A DNA stretch of 64,000 bases from Candidatus Oxydemutatoraceae bacterium (GTDB lineage: Bacteria > Pseudomonadota > Gammaproteobacteria > Poriferisulfidales > Oxydemutatoraceae): assembly GCA_965219575.1 (NCBI GenBank), contig OZ244779.1, positions 1,900,769 through 1,964,768 of the forward strand, read 5' to 3'. Numbering within the stretch: the first letter of the stretch is position 1; each line of letters starts with the position of its first letter. Positions 15,003 through 22,658 of this stretch are shown in pieces. Under the pieces are notes generated by a model. It searched no databases. It saw only the letters and a program-made list of their open reading frames with translations, and was not told the origin of the DNA. The translations under genes were made by a program, and so were the position numbers.

Positions 15003-15426
15003 ATTTCCCTCCTTGTAGGGGGTGGCATGTCTGCACCAGTACATTCCCCTCCTTTGGAGGGGTGGCCTATGCATTTTGCAATGCATGCGTTTAGCAGTCA
15101 TGTTGAGGTTCTGAACGAAGTCACGCCGATTGACCTACCGGAGCAATCGGCGGTTCTATTCAGCCTGACGGGGTGGTTGTCAAATATGGAAACCATTATC
15201 GTGTGGCGCAAGCGGTTACGGCTGTGCAGAACGATACTTAAGGGCAGACATCAGAATTGCCGATTGACCTACCGGCTCAATCGGCGGCTTTATCCTGCCC
15301 CTACAGGTGGGTTGGATAATTATGTGGCGCATAGCGGTTGCAATTGTGCAAACACAGTACTTTTTCAACAGCCCCGTCGTATCTGCACAGTGTAACAACG
15401 ATCGACCTACTGGCACACTCGGCGAC
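15003..15426. repeat. Composite intergenic repeat locus B, between apaG and apaH
   Basis: CCCCTCC..GGAGGGGTGGC element with 95-bp cassette; GGGCAGAC..CCCCTAC with hairpin insert; ACTTTTTCAACAGCCCC end near 15375. Confidence 0.9.
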
Positions 15427-16672: not shown

Positions 16673-17030
16673 GGGGGCGATCTTGGTTTCGACGGATATT
16701 ATGAAACTTGAGGTGCATGTCGAGCAGGTAAGAAACTCGTTAAACTTTTTGCGCAAAATTAGTTGCCAATCAACAAGACAACTACGCATTAGCGGCCTAA
16801 ACAACCGGCTATGCCTCCTCTCTTGGGGTGCTTGTAACTTAAGCAGAGGAGTCGATCAACAAGCTCGCGTGCGAATAGACTCGAAGTTCAAGCGTTAAAT
16901 CTTCATTCGAGGAAGCCGACTACTCAGCCTGTTTGCCGGCCGTAGACGGTGTGATTAAAGACGAACTAAACATGTAGTACCGAGAGCGGAATGTATGCGG
17001 ACGCGGGTTCAATTCCCGCCGCCTCCACCA
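16673..17030 (+). ncRNA. ssrA: tmRNA; tag peptide ANQQDNYALAA* at 16765-16800
   Basis: 5' GGGGGCG pairs with 3' CGCCTCC-ACCA (G3:U alanine determinant); T-arm GGTTCAATTCC; tag ends YALAA. Confidence 0.96.
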
Positions 17031-17053
17031 CCGAATATACATCATCGGCTAAG

Positions 17054-17186
17054 CTACCCCGTCAGGCTCAATAGAACCGCCGATTGAACCGGTAGGTCAA
17101 TCGGCGTGACTTTGTTCAGAACCTCATCATGACTTCTAGACGCATGCATTGTAAAATGCATAGGTCACCCCTCCGAAGGAGGGGAG
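17054..17186 (-). repeat. Composite repeat locus C: cassette-filled REP-like element, reverse orientation
   Basis: Reverse complement of the blocks at 8213-8346 and 15043-15177. Confidence 0.9.
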
Positions 17187-17324
17187 TTAACTACAGCCGA
17201 AAGAACTAAGTAATAGCTGATTTCTCAAAGCCGTACAGTAATCGTCACCTAAACTGTTGCCACTTAAATCCAACCCCTGCAGACTAGTTAGACTGCTAAA
17301 GATACCCGATGGGAGCGAAATCAA
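17187..17324 (-). other. Second LRR + C-terminal cap module, in frame directly after the stop of the 1777-aa gene
   Basis: Manual translation: LISLPSGIFSSLTSLQGLDLSGNSLGDDYCTALRNQLLLSSFGCS*. Confidence 0.8.
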
Positions 17325-20300
17325 TCACAAATCACAATTAACAACAACAAGCGGTAACTGGTTCTCCAGTGACGTACAGTAACTGGAACCTAAATTGTTG
17401 CGGCTCAAACCCACCCACTGCAGACTAGTTAAACCGCTAAAGATACCCTCGGGGAGCGTGCTTAGATCGTTGTCATGCAAATCCAACTCATCCAGCCTAG
17501 TTAAACCGCTAAAGATACCCTCGGGGAGCGTGCTTAGATCGTTGTTATACAAATCCAAATACCGCAGATTGGTTAAACCGCTAAAGATACCCTCTGGGAG
17601 CGTACTTAGCTCGTTGTCATACAAATCCAAATTCCGCAGACTAGTTAAACCGCTAAAGATACCCTCGGGGAGCGTACTTAGCTTGTTGTTATCCAACCTC
17701 AACTCATACAGCCTAGTTAAACCGCTAAAGATACCCTCGGGGAGCGTACTTAGCTTGTTGTTATCCAAACTCAACTCATACAGCCTAGTTAAACCGCTAA
17801 AGATACCCTCGGGGAGCGTACTTAGCTCGTTGCCATCCAAATCCAACCGCCCCAGACTAGTTAAACCGCTAAAGATACCCTCGGGGAGCGTGCTTATATC
17901 GTTTCCAGCCAAAATCAATTCATCCAGACTAGTTAAACCGCTAAAATCACCGGTCAATAAAGAAGATAATGAAGGAAATATCGACTCTTCATCAAGAAAC
18001 ATTCTTGTAATCGTAGCGAGGTCTTCCGCACTAATCTCGGCACAGTCGTCTTTGTCAACCCGTTGTTTGATTTCATCCCGCACCTGTGGTGTTCTATCGC
18101 ATACACCCAGTAGTTGCACAGCGATTGGTATTTCCTGATATTGCTGAATTACTCTACCGTATCGACTGTGTCCGGTATAGCGTAGCTTGTATTTGTCTTC
18201 TTCTATCTCTTGTGAGTCATCCACTCGGACGGTGTTTTCGTCAACTCTTATCAATCTAGGCGCACCTTCGGGTGGAACAACCGACCACATGCCCTGTTGG
18301 ATTTTGTTCCTCTCCCTACCAAACCATTGCCCCGGTGTAACCCGCACGGTATAGGTATTTTCGTCATTTCTACCTTGTCTCAGCTGCATTTCCGGTAGCG
18401 ATGTAATCGCACGACGCAAGTCAAATAATTCATACGATTCGGCGAAGGGGATAAGAATAGGTTCAAGATCCACATTTATGTTTGACGCAATTCCTAAACT
18501 TGAATCCAACCTCGTGAAGCGATAATCACTGCTGTCAATAGCTGCCTCTAAAGAAACACCACTCCCTCGCTCGAATATTCCCTCAACATCGCCATTGCCC
18601 TGCACATAAGGAATTAATTGAACATTCGTAAGAATGGAGGCGTAAAGCCCCAAGTCCAGTTGAGGAATCAGCGAAAACTTAACCATCATTCCGGCTGCTG
18701 TCTTAACCGTGATTTCGTATTCGCTGCTACTGTCGGCACTGCTGATAGGCACAAATCTACCGTTTTTGTATCTAAAACCTGCCCTTAATTTATAGGTTGA
18801 TTGAAATGTCTGGGCAATGTTCATCTCGGCCGATACTCCAGCCTCACCTCTTACCTTAAAGCCAAGCTCACCGTTAACCACAACCGGTATCGGTATTCCC
18901 AAAGTAGGTACAAATATGAGCCGATAGAAACTTTTCTTTTTACCTATTTCTTTTTCTCCATCTAGCGTATATCCGGATGCAGTAATTATTTCTAGTAGTA
19001 TGTCTAGATCTACATCGCCACCGACAACGACCTCGAGAGTTCCGTGTTTGGATGATTCTCGATCATAAGAGATTTTAATTTCAGGGTCAAAATCCAGATC
19101 CATATCGCCATGGAATCGCTGTTCGCCATCGGGTATTGAGGGTATCGGTATCGTCACCTCTCCTTGGAAGGAAAGATTCACAGGTTTATCGGAAGAAACA
19201 GCAATCGGCACCGTAATACTTCGCTCGCATGGATAGCCGAACAAAAGCTCCATTTTCCATTCATCGCGACTCTTATGCCGTTCGTAAGTTCGCCAGCGCA
19301 CACGATGTTCCACAATCCTTGCATCGGCACTTGCCGGTTTAGCTCTCACCGAAGCACCCTGCCTTCCCCGGCTCGTACCTCTTTGGGTGATGTCGTCTAT
19401 GGTCACCGAACACCGTTCGCTAAAGTTCTCGGGATATTCAACATAAACATCAAACGAGGCAACCTTGTTGACTTCGGCTGTCACATAAGGCGGATACCAA
19501 ACTTTTATGATGTCGCCGAATAGACCGAAAAAGCCTGTTGTGATAATGCGGATATTTTCATGTTCATAAGTCGCAGGAATATCCGGTTCGGACGGCTGTT
19601 GCTCCGAGCGTAGCCCTACCGCATCTTTGATGCTATCGAGTAGATCGTCGGTTTGGCTGAGCGGTTCGGACTGGCGTAGTCTAAAGCCGCTATCCGGCCA
19701 GTGCATCTCACGGATTTGCTCGCCGCCCTCGAAGATCGGTTGATACGGCCACACTTCGGACGGCGGAACCGACATCGGCGAGCGCAGTGCCGGGGAGAAC
19801 CGCCTGAGTTTGGTGTCCGCCGGCGGTGCCGGCTCGCCTCGTTGCTCGGCACGCACTTGTGCCGATTTCGCTGCCGCAATCGCCGCATCGTCGTCCACAT
19901 CCTCCAGTCTAACATTCATGTTCAAGCTGAGGTCTGAGAATACATCGGCCAGCGATGCCTGTTCGGTATAGAGTAGCATTTGGTCGCTACCGACGATTTC
20001 AATACGGGTAATCCTTCTCAGATAGCTGTCGTCTTGTCCCATCATGATCGCAACTTGTCCCACTTTCAGATCGTCGCGACGGTCTACGATAATCGTGCCG
20101 TCGGCGTTCAGTTCCGTATCAATCCGTATCAGCACCACCTCGTTTTGGGTGGACAATTTCGGCATCATCGACATCGTGCGTATCGATATCATCTCCGAGA
20201 GGCTACGGTTGCCTGCCTCGTCCAGTGCGGCAACATGCACATAGTAGGTCTGGCTGGTTTTGAGGTCATCGACATTGGCACTATAGATGCCCTGCACCAT

Positions 20301-22658
20301 CACCCGTTCGGTGTCTTTGCCGATCGTGGTTGCGGTGCTTTCGGAGACATGCACTTCGTAGACGATCTGCTCGGCAGCACTGCGGTCGTCGGTCGATGCC
20401 ATCCAATCCAGTGCAATGGCGGTCGTGGAAGAAGCATACGCAGACACGATGACCGGCGCAGTCGGGGGTGTTTCGTCGTTGCCGGTTGGTAGCGGCAACA
20501 TTATGCTCACCGCCGGGCTGACGGCACTCTCACCCTGCTCATTGACTGCACTCACCGCGTAGTAATAAAGTTGCCCTCGGATTAGCCCGGTGTGTACATA
20601 GCCGGTGCCGTAGATATCCGAGATGACTTGATCCGCTTGAGCGGCATTAATATCGGCAAAGCTGTTCCAATAAATCTTATACGAGGTTGCCCGATTTACC
20701 GGTCGCCAGCTGAGCGCAATGACATCGTCGCGTGCCTCAAGAATCAAATCGCGCGGCGGCGCAGGCGGCGAGGTTGCGGTGCTTCCGGTTCTGATATAGG
20801 TCGTTAGTTGCGTCGGGGTGCGCGCCGCTTGGGGAATCGCAGTCAGCGAACCGTCGGCATCACTGTAGACCAGCACCCGCTCCGTGTCTGCGTCTAAGAT
20901 CAGATGATACGGTGCTCGGACGGTGACCGGACTCAATAGAACGGTGCGGTTGCCGTTATCAAGGTCAACCTCGACTACAGCCCTCAAACCATTGTCCGCA
21001 ACATACGCCAAACCGGCATCGTCGTCCAGCACGACTGCAATCGGTTGATCGAACGAGGGGCCGGAACCTCTTTCCGGTATCACGCATATCGCTCGCACCA
21101 AACAGCCCGAAACGATGGCTCTCTCACCGGTCGTCGCATCCACCATGAGCAGTGCGTCCAGCTGGTCGTCTACGACGACGATACGCGTCGCAGAACTATT
21201 GATGCTCAACGCTTGCGGGTGTAGCATGACGGTGCCGTCTCCGATGTTGCGTTCCTCAACAGGACATAAATCGCTTGCCGTACATCCCGAAACTACACTG
21301 CGGTTGCCGTTCGTTAAATCTACTGCGATAAGTGCGCTCAAATAGGTATCGGTGATAATCAGGCGATTGCCGGCCTCGTCCAACACCGCATCGGTCGGTT
21401 GCGTTAACGGCACACCGCCGCCCACCCGGTATTGCCCCGACGGACAGCGGTTGACGATGTCGCACCCGGAAACCACACTGCGACTGCCGTCGGTCAAATC
21501 AACCGCAATCACCGCACGCAGAAAACTATCGACGATATACAACCTGTCGGTGCTGTCGCTATGCCCGACAAAGACCAAATCATGAATATCCACCTCGCCG
21601 ACCTGAGTGCCGGTATCCACCAGTTGTTGTCTCGAACCCGACGGGTTAACCGTCCATAGCGTGTGGTCGTCTCCCAATGCGTATAATGCCCCCGACTCGG
21701 ACAGCACCGTGTCTTGCACGCGCTCGGGCAGCGTAGGCAGTGTAGCACCTGAAACTATATTAGAAATACCGCCACTCAGCGCACCTTCTAAAAATACCCG
21801 CGCCCGTACTTTGATCGCCCCCGATCGCTTGCGGTATTGCACCTCGTAAGTGCCACGACACAGGTTGCCGTCGGCGCGTTGGTACGACCAGTACGCGCGC
21901 CCGTTGCCGTTATCGTTGTCGCTAAACTCGGCTCGCACGATCAGTGTGCGCGTGCCGTTAAATGCCAGGGCAGTACTGTATTGCCCGGTGAATATATAAG
22001 TGCTCGAGCTTATCGCTGCCGACAGCATCGCCGACAATCCGAAATCGTCGGTGAAACGATAACTTGCCGTGTTGCCTGCTTGGCTCATCTCAATTCGCTG
22101 TTCTCGCTCACGCACCGCAGCACACGACCCCGATACCACGGTCGATGTTGTGATAGACAGCCGGTAATTCCCGTTTATATCACGGCTCGGCATGTCGCTT
22201 AGATAATCGACATTGAAAGCCTCCGTACAGAGTGTTTGCGTATCGTCGCAATATCTAAAAGCAACCGTTCCGACAAGACCGATGCCTGCCGTCCCTCGTG
22301 CATTGATCATAGCAGAAGTTCTGATACCTAAAGCGGGTATGAAAACCTGTCTTTGCAACGGCAAAAATTCGTTTGCCAGACCATAGGGCGTTTCATCTAT
22401 GCGCCTGCTGATACCATTCTCCGTTATGTGGAGCGTCAGCGTCGTCGCTTGCGTGGCTTGCTCTCGGCTAGTCGCAATAAACGATAGTGTATAATTCCCT
22501 CCCCAGCGAAGTTCGGAAGGTGTAATCGACGGCGTGCCGAATACCAAAGCGGGTTGTGCAGCACCGATAACCGGCAAGCAACACAAGACAGATAAAGCGA
22601 TTGCTTGCCGAATGACCCGAGAGGTAAATAAACCCCACATTATTATATTTTTAAGCAT
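17325..22658 (-). CDS. Large secreted mosaic protein: signal peptide, NHL/SGL-like beta-propeller, two fibronectin type III domains, unassigned beta-rich region, C-terminal leucine-rich repeats
   Basis: Signal-like ..PVIGAA-QP; repeated VDLxxGxRxVVSGC blades; PPAPPRDL..LSW..YYYAVSAVNEQGES and PPTAP..YYVHVAALDEAGNRS FN3 motifs; 24-aa LSTLPEGIFSGLTxL repeats. Confidence 0.85.
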   Translation of the reverse strand: MLKNIIMWGLFTSRVIRQAIALSVLCCLPVIGAAQPALVFGTPSITPSELRWGGNYTLSFIATSREQATQATTLTLHITENGISRRIDETPYGLANEFLPLQRQVFIPALGIRTSAMINARGTAGIGLVGTVAFRYCDDTQTLCTEAFNVDYLSDMPSRDINGNYRLSITTSTVVSGSCAAVREREQRIEMSQAGNTASYRFTDDFGLSAMLSAAISSSTYIFTGQYSTALAFNGTRTLIVRAEFSDNDNGNGRAYWSYQRADGNLCRGTYEVQYRKRSGAIKVRARVFLEGALSGGISNIVSGATLPTLPERVQDTVLSESGALYALGDDHTLWTVNPSGSRQQLVDTGTQVGEVDIHDLVFVGHSDSTDRLYIVDSFLRAVIAVDLTDGSRSVVSGCDIVNRCPSGQYRVGGGVPLTQPTDAVLDEAGNRLIITDTYLSALIAVDLTNGNRSVVSGCTASDLCPVEERNIGDGTVMLHPQALSINSSATRIVVVDDQLDALLMVDATTGERAIVSGCLVRAICVIPERGSGPSFDQPIAVVLDDDAGLAYVADNGLRAVVEVDLDNGNRTVLLSPVTVRAPYHLILDADTERVLVYSDADGSLTAIPQAARTPTQLTTYIRTGSTATSPPAPPRDLILEARDDVIALSWRPVNRATSYKIYWNSFADINAAQADQVISDIYGTGYVHTGLIRGQLYYYAVSAVNEQGESAVSPAVSIMLPLPTGNDETPPTAPVIVSAYASSTTAIALDWMASTDDRSAAEQIVYEVHVSESTATTIGKDTERVMVQGIYSANVDDLKTSQTYYVHVAALDEAGNRSLSEMISIRTMSMMPKLSTQNEVVLIRIDTELNADGTIIVDRRDDLKVGQVAIMMGQDDSYLRRITRIEIVGSDQMLLYTEQASLADVFSDLSLNMNVRLEDVDDDAAIAAAKSAQVRAEQRGEPAPPADTKLRRFSPALRSPMSVPPSEVWPYQPIFEGGEQIREMHWPDSGFRLRQSEPLSQTDDLLDSIKDAVGLRSEQQPSEPDIPATYEHENIRIITTGFFGLFGDIIKVWYPPYVTAEVNKVASFDVYVEYPENFSERCSVTIDDITQRGTSRGRQGASVRAKPASADARIVEHRVRWRTYERHKSRDEWKMELLFGYPCERSITVPIAVSSDKPVNLSFQGEVTIPIPSIPDGEQRFHGDMDLDFDPEIKISYDRESSKHGTLEVVVGGDVDLDILLEIITASGYTLDGEKEIGKKKSFYRLIFVPTLGIPIPVVVNGELGFKVRGEAGVSAEMNIAQTFQSTYKLRAGFRYKNGRFVPISSADSSSEYEITVKTAAGMMVKFSLIPQLDLGLYASILTNVQLIPYVQGNGDVEGIFERGSGVSLEAAIDSSDYRFTRLDSSLGIASNINVDLEPILIPFAESYELFDLRRAITSLPEMQLRQGRNDENTYTVRVTPGQWFGRERNKIQQGMWSVVPPEGAPRLIRVDENTVRVDDSQEIEEDKYKLRYTGHSRYGRVIQQYQEIPIAVQLLGVCDRTPQVRDEIKQRVDKDDCAEISAEDLATITRMFLDEESIFPSLSSLLTGDFSGLTSLDELILAGNDISTLPEGIFSGLTSLGRLDLDGNELSTLPEGIFSGLTRLYELSLDNNKLSTLPEGIFSGLTRLYELRLDNNKLSTLPEGIFSGLTSLRNLDLYDNELSTLPEGIFSGLTNLRYLDLYNNDLSTLPEGIFSGLTRLDELDLHDNDLSTLPEGIFSGLTSLQWVGLSRNNLGSSYCTSLENQLPLVVVNCDL
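17390..17960 (-). repeat. 72-bp LRR-coding tandem repeat, 8 units
   Basis: GTTAAACCGCTAAAGATACCCTCGGGGAGCGT recurs every 72 bp on the + strand. Confidence 0.95.

Follow-up and report, generated by a model that had tools for sequence, protein, structure and literature searches.

Silent-cassette variation is known from pilE/pilS, vlsE and tprK, and the lamprey VLR genes are assembled from flanking leucine-rich repeat (LRR) cassettes. Duplicated genes can also evolve in concert when they are homogenised by ectopic gene conversion. The motifs PxxxxDPxGL and VENN mark the boundary between core and tip in rhs and CdiA proteins, and C-terminal displacement and orphan ends at the corresponding loci were reportedly treated by Poole and colleagues in 2011. 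As set out by Jackson et al. (2009; PMC2935791), displaced C-terminal ends are present at rhs and cdiA loci as orphans downstream of the working gene. A narrow literature search returned no bacterial LRR silent cassette, which is not proof that none has been published.

The locus analysed here lies within the window (the whole stretch of 64,000 nucleotides under study). A full-length gene, gene A, is followed directly downstream by a homologue of its own 3′ end (Table 1). Translation of the minus strand over 17100-22658 ends with LPEGIFSGLTSLQWVGLSRNNLGSSYCTSLENQLPLVVVNCDL, a stop, LISLPSGIFSSLTSLQGLDLSGNSLGDDYCTALRNQLLLSSFGCS and a second stop. The TGA of gene A is at 17325-17327, behind a protein that ends in ...NCDL; the first codon of the second segment, module 2, comes directly after it and the TAA of module 2 is at 17187-17189. 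A sequence-only reading of the locus had described a second last repeat plus cap in frame behind the stop. This was borne out by the translation (46 codons at 17187-17324), as was its statement that both cap cysteines are kept with neither an internal stop nor a frameshift; their spacing in module 2 is that of working caps. The DNA string that it quoted is the reverse complement of 17280-17315, and its description of the gene needed correction in that gene A lies on the minus strand. The arrangement resembles an rhs/cdiA orphan (Jackson et al. 2009): what would be the former end lies directly downstream, retains a core or repeat stretch able to pair, and a new end is attached to the gene. Unlike such orphans, module 2 has no toxin domain or immunity gene and is followed by a structured repeat element and then a tmRNA gene. 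No boundary motif of either type was found by eye in the last 300 residues of A or in module 2. The piece itself also differs, being a single 45-codon structural LRR cap that is homologous to the end that would have replaced it.

Table 1. Positions of the features at the 3′ end of gene A, in window coordinates
Feature	Position	Strand	Basis
tmRNA gene, converging on gene A	16673..17030	+	ARAGORN; Rfam RF00023, 191 bits
Structured repeat element of about 130 bp, MITE-like, right after the module 2 stop	17056..17185	-	Genome copies, fold
Module 2: second last LRR + cap 2, 45 codons + TAA	17187..17324	-	Translation, homology to the end of B
Polymorphic patch in the cap-2 tail	17191..17212	-	Run contigs; allele rebuilt and translated
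Tandem repeat of 7 bp across the TGA stop, coding-strand unit TGTGATT	17323..17337	-	Tandem Repeats Finder
Gene A, secreted protein of 1777 aa	17325..22658	-	ORF list, translation, Pfam
Module 1: last LRR + cap 1, C-terminus in use, STLPEGIFSGLTSLQWVGLSRNNLGSSYCTSLENQLPLVVVNCDL	17328..17462	-	Translation, comparison with B
LRR array, 72-bp (24-aa) units of LxxLxLxxNxLSTLPEGIFSGLTx type	17421..17945	-	Tandem Repeats Finder
LRR N-terminal cap, cysteine-containing, GVCDRTPQVRDEI...DDCAEISAEDLATIT	~18003..18107 (approximate)	-	Translations

The gene A product consists, in order, of a signal peptide, beta-propeller-like repeats, two fn3 domains, an uncharacterised body, an N-cap, eight LRR units and cap 1. 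Pfam assigned LRR_8 (E 1.7e-39) and fn3 (E 8e-13), and the LRR profiles scored 133.8 bits for LRR_8 (cut-off 27), 67.8 for LRR_4 and 56 for LRR_5. All 11 Pfam families listed for gene A are of LRR, fn3 or Ig type, and LRRCT is absent among them. The array has a period of 72 with 7.3 copies and 87% matches. Gene A had been called a giant LRR gene; it is large and bears LRRs, but the repeat part was overstated, as about 190 of the 1777 residues (eight units of 24 aa) are LRR. In the metagenome proteins P0001 and P0004 the N-cap motif likewise stands ahead of each LRR block. Single-sequence AF2 models of the LRR domain gave a solenoid of eight (A) or seven (B) parallel strands followed by a helix and a short strand, so that both models contain a C-terminal capping element, as in a typical-type solenoid with cap. 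The pLDDT was 85-88 for the cap blocks of paralog B and only 46-63 for cap 1 of A, which is no more than a hint as to whether cap 1 is fully competent. The top Foldseek matches were designed LRRs, VLRs (2o6q at 45% identity, 2o6s and 5ufb) and LRRTM2. In its 24-residue units (LxxLxLxxNxLxxLPxGxFxxLxx) and its cysteine-containing N- and C-caps the domain resembles the extracellular typical-type LRR proteins (LRR_8; VLR, LRRTM2 and chondroadherin by fold). Unlike in those proteins, the C-cap is a short helix plus strand with two cysteines, nearer in sequence to a ribonuclease-inhibitor-type unit; a profile of the cap also matches P0124.

The tail of cap 1 is the most diverged among all caps seen, with a synonymous difference of about 0.6 to the other tails. 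It reads ...VVVNCDL, the odd one against the canonical ...FSC[DS] before the stop, which is found in G003, P0128 and P0131 and to which module 2 and B conform. No tail similar to that of cap 1 was found among proteins of 476-2000 aa, a search that gave three candidates (best E 1.5), and a VVVNC-type end was present in none of the five proteins retrieved from a profile search of 1.84 billion representatives. The 7-bp repeat over the stop codon (period 7, 2.1 copies, 100%) bears on the reading frame. Read by eye, the sequence minus one TGTGATT copy gives ...NCD-TGA and leaves module 2 out of frame; judged from these letters, the in-frame position of module 2 may be an accident of the 7-bp duplication. 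Among 19 family genomes the cap profile matched four times, in two genomes, and module 2 was the only match in a short (45-aa) frame. Three caps are present in this genome (that of B and caps 1 and 2 of A), one of them an orphan. P0001 and P0004 are multi-module relatives. Both have an Ig-like domain after the cap, and in neither does a cap lead straight into an LRR unit. A first homologue search was dominated by long LRR proteins and gave no information on the cap. Scanning genome contigs with the non-LRR body of gene A gave 105 pattern hits, none of which was confirmed.

In BLASTP comparisons, module 2 shared 25 of 42 residues with the last module of gene A (E 7e-16) and 29 of 42 with that of B (E 2e-19). 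At the DNA level it was 82.6% identical to B over 121 nt (E 1e-29) and 81% identical to module 1 over 86 nt. The homology greatly exceeds what chance would give. The claimed homology to the constant half of the LRR units held, but at only about 81-83% identity; the constant half of module 1 is 95-98% identical to the array units. The head of module 2 departs from the near-invariant consensus (LIS for LST, FSS for FSG). Of simulated copies carrying 30 random substitutions 32% remained open, and the chance of sharing the frame of gene A is 1 in 3, so that the open and in-frame state of module 2 is weak evidence when taken alone. The dN/dS of the module, a check that had been proposed, was below 1 against both B (0.40) and G003 (0.31) but 0.91 for the tail alone against B; with 45 codons and no strain series these pairwise ratios have little power and cannot place changes on a silent branch.

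Paralog B lies elsewhere in the genome. It has a frame of 1760 aa and shares 97.1% identity with A along 5247 nt; there are no mismatches across 18000-21000, and the flanks differ by 3-6%. B ends in a single terminal module, ...LQWLVLRNNNLGNDYCTALRNQLSLSRFSCD before the stop, and is then followed by the same repeat element of about 130 bp that follows module 2 in A. The similarity between the two ends is mosaic. In the heads, B is closer to module 1 (85.6%) than to module 2 (76.3%), and in the tails it is closer to module 2 (82.2%) than to module 1 (57.8%). In head and tail alike, the nearest cap to that of B is the one of G003, from the same genus. Since B shares both its tail type and the repeat element with module 2, module 2 corresponds by position and homology to a working C-terminus. 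On sequence grounds it appears to be the counterpart of that C-terminus, moved into the 3′ untranslated region. The protein-collection cluster around gene A holds only A, B and two fragments. One fragment (P0123, on a 5.7-kb contig) joins a B-type 5′ part to an A-type LRR array; it was set aside as evidence, because the 3-kb tract identical in A and B may have led the assembler to join the two genes.

Contigs from four public runs belonging to three studies were compared with the locus. A 234-nt contig over 17216-17449 with no differences was present in all four runs, and a 291-nt contig in run X3 spans 17159-17449 and connects cap 1 with a copy of module 2 in which the final 59 nt are those of B. 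The region lies next to the 72-bp array and to a repeat element with many copies, a setting in which a collapsed or mis-joined repeat could mislead an assembler, and an artefact had been held open by the sequence-only reading. Because identical contigs were recovered from every run, the tandem modules are not an assembly artefact for practical purposes, and we attach next to no probability to it. The patch in the cap-2 tail comprises eight substitutions within 22 nt, with ...LLLSSFGCS in the reference and ...LSLSRFSCD in X3, X5 and X6. In the allele of these three runs the tail of module 2 is identical to that of B. That all eight differences lie inside 22 nt is the signature of a conversion tract, and the patch points to gene conversion between the A and B loci. 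B is a known donor for this common allele; no donor for the reference tail was found in the genome itself. None of X3, X5 and X6 contains the reference tail, and reciprocal exchange is thus not indicated. The 3-kb tract without mismatches and the patch equal to the tail of B are as expected for concerted evolution, and the case would differ from the usual one only in that one partner is an untranslated relic.

These observations are best explained if module 2 is an untranslated displacement or duplication relic, the former end of gene A, and we consider this probable. Module 2 would be the old C-terminal module of the gene, a last LRR with its helix-and-cysteine cap. A 138-bp event would have set another last LRR, cap and stop (module 1) ahead of it, either by tandem duplication of the terminal module or by replacement of the 3′ end through recombination within the LRR array. 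A simple recent duplication in place would be insufficient by itself, because it leaves unexplained the strong divergence of cap 1, for whose tail the search gave nothing similar. Translation would now end at the TGA of module 1, and module 2 would lie in an untranslated 3′ part that runs as far as the hairpins of the repeat element. This element has 29 near-full copies and many more partial ones in the genome, and its fold has a z-score of -5.8. Its first hairpin, CCCCTCC-TTCG-GGAGGGG at about 17163-17185, is likely to form the transcript end; a terminator scan gave no call for this hairpin. No ORF was found between module 2 and the repeat element and tmRNA gene. An island integrated at the tmRNA gene was considered and rejected, as no second tmRNA 3′ end was present in the genome beyond 14-nt chance matches. 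A and B would still trade sequence through gene conversion, the terminal module of B pairing on the left with the head of module 1 and on the right with the tail of module 2 and the repeat element. The outer parts of the tandem would thus be B-like because they pair with B, whereas the cap-1 tail, the stop and the head of module 2 would have diverged for want of a partner. Module 2 would still be open because it is short, has no indels and has its tail overwritten from B now and then; use is not needed for it to remain open. Counting against a relic are the lack of any stop or indel, the two cysteines at the spacing of a working cap and, within their small power, the pairwise dN/dS values below 1. 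The perfectly canonical tail of the allele in three of four runs is also what selection to keep a spare in usable form would give.

Two other readings were considered. Module 1 could be the newcomer, the end of a foreign LRR gene with head, cap 1 and stop, which entered the array by recombination and pushed out the resident end, as in Rhs C-terminal displacement; module 2 would be a relic all the same, of another origin. The tail of cap 1 is further from those of module 2 and B than is the G003 tail (57.8% against 78-82%), and cap 1 shares YCTSL with G003, P0128 and P0131, whereas module 2 and B have YCTAL. The searches described above found neither a donor-like tail nor a second VVVNC-type end, and the head of module 1 is nearly identical to the resident array units; we regard a foreign origin as unlikely. 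Slightly less likely still, in our estimate, is the proposal of the sequence-only reading that module 2 is an active spare cassette, whose crossover or conversion with the array or with the end of B would swap the cap and reset the repeat number. In much the same doubtful degree, this would give population-level variation in a host-facing binding protein. Module 2 is an intact, in-frame homologue of module 1 in an orphan-like position, and it takes part in recombination, as the allele with the tail of B shows. The module of B has a module-1-like head and a module-2-like tail, as a single crossover between modules 1 and 2 would give, and members of the family within the genus differ in their C-terminal domain: in the G001 orthologue the end is what we take, by eye, to be an FGE-sulfatase-like domain, and not LRRs. 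Like the silent-cassette systems, the locus has, next to an expressed gene, a partial and promoterless copy of a segment from a variable surface protein, and by fold its LRR type is that of the lamprey VLRs. Unlike those systems it has one copy and not an array of cassettes. No contig of the four runs joined an LRR unit to module 2 without cap 1 (contigs drop rare variants), and within that scope no genome or contig uses module 2 as the end of gene A. The head is off consensus, the 7-bp repeat means that the frame may be shared by accident, and no reciprocal exchange was seen. The end of B could be the product of a cassette transfer, but judged from the sequences it is accounted for just as well by conversion confined to the flanks. 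In the analogy to orphan modules, homology, position and a part in recombination are supported; use and number are not. In a rather improbable version, module 2 and the end of B would form a small two-locus exchange system storing an alternative LRR and cap, in which crossover or conversion with the arrays of both genes would exchange caps and alter the number of repeats; it is similarly improbable that the present end of B is one fixed product of such exchange.

Module 2 might instead be translated, if the TGA were read through or recoded or if ribosomes re-initiated at the TTG directly after it. The frame is shared without a gap and the TTG is in place, but none of the 42 tRNAs is tRNA-Sec, TGA closes 158 of 500 long frames, and the fold downstream of the TGA contains no obvious SECIS-like element. 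Hence read-through, which had been named as an alternative, found no support, and no sign of programmed UGA recoding, including TGA reassignment, was obtained. A T after the stop codon is a strong termination context in E. coli, and the base after the TGA of gene A is a T. A read-through product would have an architecture absent from P0001 and P0004, where the cap leads to an Ig-like domain; the product of re-initiation would have 45 aa and no signal peptide. We consider translation of module 2 highly improbable. The decaying duplication that had been listed as a further alternative to the spare cassette comes nearer than the cassette itself to the displaced relic that we prefer.

Most likely, then, module 2 is a tidy but fairly ordinary relic, and the 45-codon frame should not be named a gene in annotation. 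If the module were used after all, this would be a bacterial case in which a eukaryote-like LRR binding domain varies by cassettes. A true two-locus exchange would mean that a symbiont varies a VLR-like host-binding surface, a counterpart of cassette-based LRR receptor assembly. If the reading of module 2 as a displaced relic is right, the locus is a small-scale case of end turnover in large repeat-bearing surface proteins, in which the displaced end is left in the 3′ untranslated region and parts of it are kept fresh by conversion with a paralog. The C-terminal binding domain of this gene family turns over quickly, with LRRs here and an apparent FGE-sulfatase-like domain in a relative of the same genus.

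Gene A, which encodes the secreted LRR protein, ends ...LPEGIFSGLTSLQWVGLSRNNLGSSYCTSLENQLPLVVVNCDL followed by TGA; its last LRR and cap are referred to here as module 1. A second last LRR and cap (module 2) match module 1 at 25 of 42 residues (E 7e-16), confirming the sequence-only reading that such a unit lies in frame behind the stop codon. The LRR part of gene A comprises only the last ≈ 190 residues (eight units; 72-bp period, 7.3 copies), and the rest consists of a signal peptide, repeat-rich regions, two fn3 domains and an uncharacterised body. The TGA itself falls within a 7-bp tandem repeat. As we read it, loss of one copy would shift module 2 to another frame and give gene A the end ...NCD-TGA, which looks canonical; the frame common to gene A and module 2 may thus be accidental. 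The tmRNA gene convergent with gene A specifies the tag peptide ANQQDNYALAA; sequencing run X5 also has a divergent tmRNA contig, with 39 differences, that comes from another organism.

Features of the locus and its relatives (window coordinates unless a contig is named)
Feature	Location	Strand	Remarks
Gene A ORF	17325..22658	minus	1777 residues; ORF list
Module 2	17187-17324	minus	45 codons + TAA, frame of gene A; translation LISLPSGIFSSLTSLQGLDLSGNSLGDDYCTALRNQLLLSSFGCS
tmRNA gene	16673-17030	plus	convergent with gene A
~130-bp structured repeat element	17056-17185; 15043-15175 (inverted)		
Gene B (paralog)	G000 C1:1308319-1313601		1760-aa frame
L004 (third LRR gene)	G000:C1:371091-374015		974-aa frame
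L029 (orthologue of gene A non-LRR body)	G001:C1:1598201-1605814		73% identity, 1917-aa frame
L030	G004:C2:84422-88690		truncated copy, N-terminal ~424 residues, internal TGA

A profile built from four caps (modules 1 and 2, gene B and the same-genus genome G003) gave 24 matches at E ≤ 1e-3 among 1.84 billion representative proteins, five of which were examined. Two giant metagenome proteins (P0001 and P0004) repeat a super-module 6-7 times in the order Ig-like domain, cysteine N-cap (VCxRTxQVRD...DC...), LRR units and NxLGxxYCxxLxxQLSIxxFSCGG; the cap is followed by an Ig-like domain and never directly by an LRR unit. P0128 and P0131 end ...YCTSLRNQLS...FSCD, and the G003 gene ends ...YCTSLRSQLSLRRFSCS. 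Taken together, these ends show that the element is a genuine C-terminal cap with the canonical end FSC[D/S/G]. P0001 and P0004 also contain an apparent inserted domain that looks lipase- or esterase-like by eye. Among 19 family genomes, the profile matched only in this genome (gene B and both modules of gene A) and in G003; of these matches, module 2 alone lay in a short frame. The end of L004, ...DCTTLRDSF...ANFSCS, is related to this cap but is longer and diverged, and the profile missed it. Single-sequence AF2 models predicted a solenoid, as expected, with a helix and a strand closing it and block pLDDT of 85-88 for the gene B cap and 46-63 for cap 1; the best Foldseek matches were designed LRRs, hagfish and lamprey VLRs (2o6q, 45% identity) and LRRTM2.

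The genome is a single 2.37-Mb contig, and its two paralogs are 97.1% identical over 5247 nt. A 3-kb tract (window 18000-21000; gene B at G000:C1 ~1310000-1313000) has no mismatches, next to 3-6% divergence in the 5' third, which indicates that genes A and B exchange sequence by recent ectopic gene conversion. The 1373-aa protein P0123, on a 5.7-kb contig, joins a B-type N-terminal part to an A-type LRR array, which reflects either true recombination or a chimeric assembly over the identical tract. Gene B carries seven LRR units and, after them, one terminal module, which ends ...STLPEDIFSGLTSLQWLVLRNNNLGNDYCTALRNQLSLSRFSCD and a stop codon. The same ~130-bp element directly follows this stop and module 2, which makes module 2 the positional homologue of gene B's working end. 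The element has a strong fold (z -5.8) and 29 near-full copies genome-wide; in many of these the flanks read ...GGTACA / GGTTGT..., as though the element were nested within a further repeat.

In the LRR head (first 90 nt), identity is 85.6% between module 1 and gene B, 78.9% between the two modules and 76.3% between module 2 and gene B; in the cap tail (last 45 nt), the corresponding values are 57.8%, 48.9% and 82.2%. Thus, the end of gene B looks like a module 1 head joined to a module 2 tail; its nearest relative in head and tail alike is G003. Two histories agree equally well with these data. Starting from a B-like ancestor, a 138-bp duplication or displacement would have arisen in gene A; A-B conversion would then have preserved the similarity of the outer parts, and the inner segment (cap-1 tail, stop, module 2 head), having no partner in gene B, would have diverged. 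Alternatively, the ancestor was A-like; after a copy had arisen at B, the inner segment would have been removed by a single crossover between modules 1 and 2. The crossover imagined in the sequence-only reading corresponds to this second history and fits the mosaic of gene B, no better than the first.

Thirteen public runs contain part of 17031-17530, and six of them, from three studies, at least half of the sampled words. We examined four of these six (X1, X3, X5 and X6), all as contigs. A 234-nt contig over 17216-17449 with no differences is present in each; it includes module 1 in full, most of module 2 and the beginning of the array, which excludes an assembly artefact; in X3, a single 291-nt contig crosses 17159-17449. 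At 17191-17212, X1 equals the reference and all X3, X5 and X6 contigs differ from it. The variant allele, as rebuilt by program, has eight substitutions, all inside 22 nt, with no net indel; its module 2 ends ...NQLSLSRFSCD and a stop codon, and its last 59 nt are identical to gene B. Since the strains are otherwise identical over 270 nt, the clustered changes indicate a conversion tract. The X5 and X6 evidence is an 87-nt unitig that gene B could share; the X3 contig ties the variant tail to cap 1 unambiguously. Gene B is an available donor for this common allele, and the genome holds no donor for the reference tail. Whichever direction the patch moved, module 2 recombines with the end of gene B.

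On balance, we consider it probable that module 2 is a former gene end, real and intact, that is most likely untranslated and has been renewed in part by conversion with the paralog. That module 1 is of foreign origin, a variant of the same explanation, seems unlikely. Nei-Gojobori dN/dS values were 0.40 for module 2 and gene B (head 0.26, tail 0.91), 0.31 for module 2 and G003, 0.24 for gene B and G003 and 0.41 for module 1 and gene B, all pairwise over 45 codons, such that the silent branch is not separable. In a simulation, 32% of copies remained open after 30 random substitutions, and the module 2 head deviates at positions usually conserved across the LRR units examined (LIS for LST, FSS for FSG). 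Translation of module 2 is very improbable: none of the 42 tRNAs is tRNA-Sec, TGA ends 158 of 500 long frames and no obvious SECIS-like fold lies 3' of the gene A stop, leaving TGA read-through unsupported.

An active cassette is also unlikely, slightly more so than a foreign module 1. The layout resembles that of C-terminal displacement at rhs loci, as outlined in PMC2935791, but module 2 has no toxin, immunity gene or boundary motifs and is thus not a member of that family. Unlike silent-cassette systems, it is a single copy with no transfer observed in the contigs of the four runs. The proposed role as a spare cassette lacks support; one query of the literature for silent LRR cassettes of bacteria gave no match.

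The sequence ...VRARVFLEGAL... is internal in genes A and B (window ~21770-21810, residues ~283-296 of gene A); a similar ...IRSKVFLEGPLQ closes a frame at G000:C1 ~2003000, and in the LRR gene of G003, ...QIRVFPEGLL... lies right behind the signal peptide. A second fragment of 224 aa lies 3 kb from L029 in G001, a genome of the same genus. At its C-terminus, L029 has what we take by eye to be an Ig-like stretch and an FGE-sulfatase-like domain in place of LRRs, and L030 is probably a pseudogene. The end without LRRs and the truncated piece show that the putative C-terminal binding part of this family turns over within the genus.
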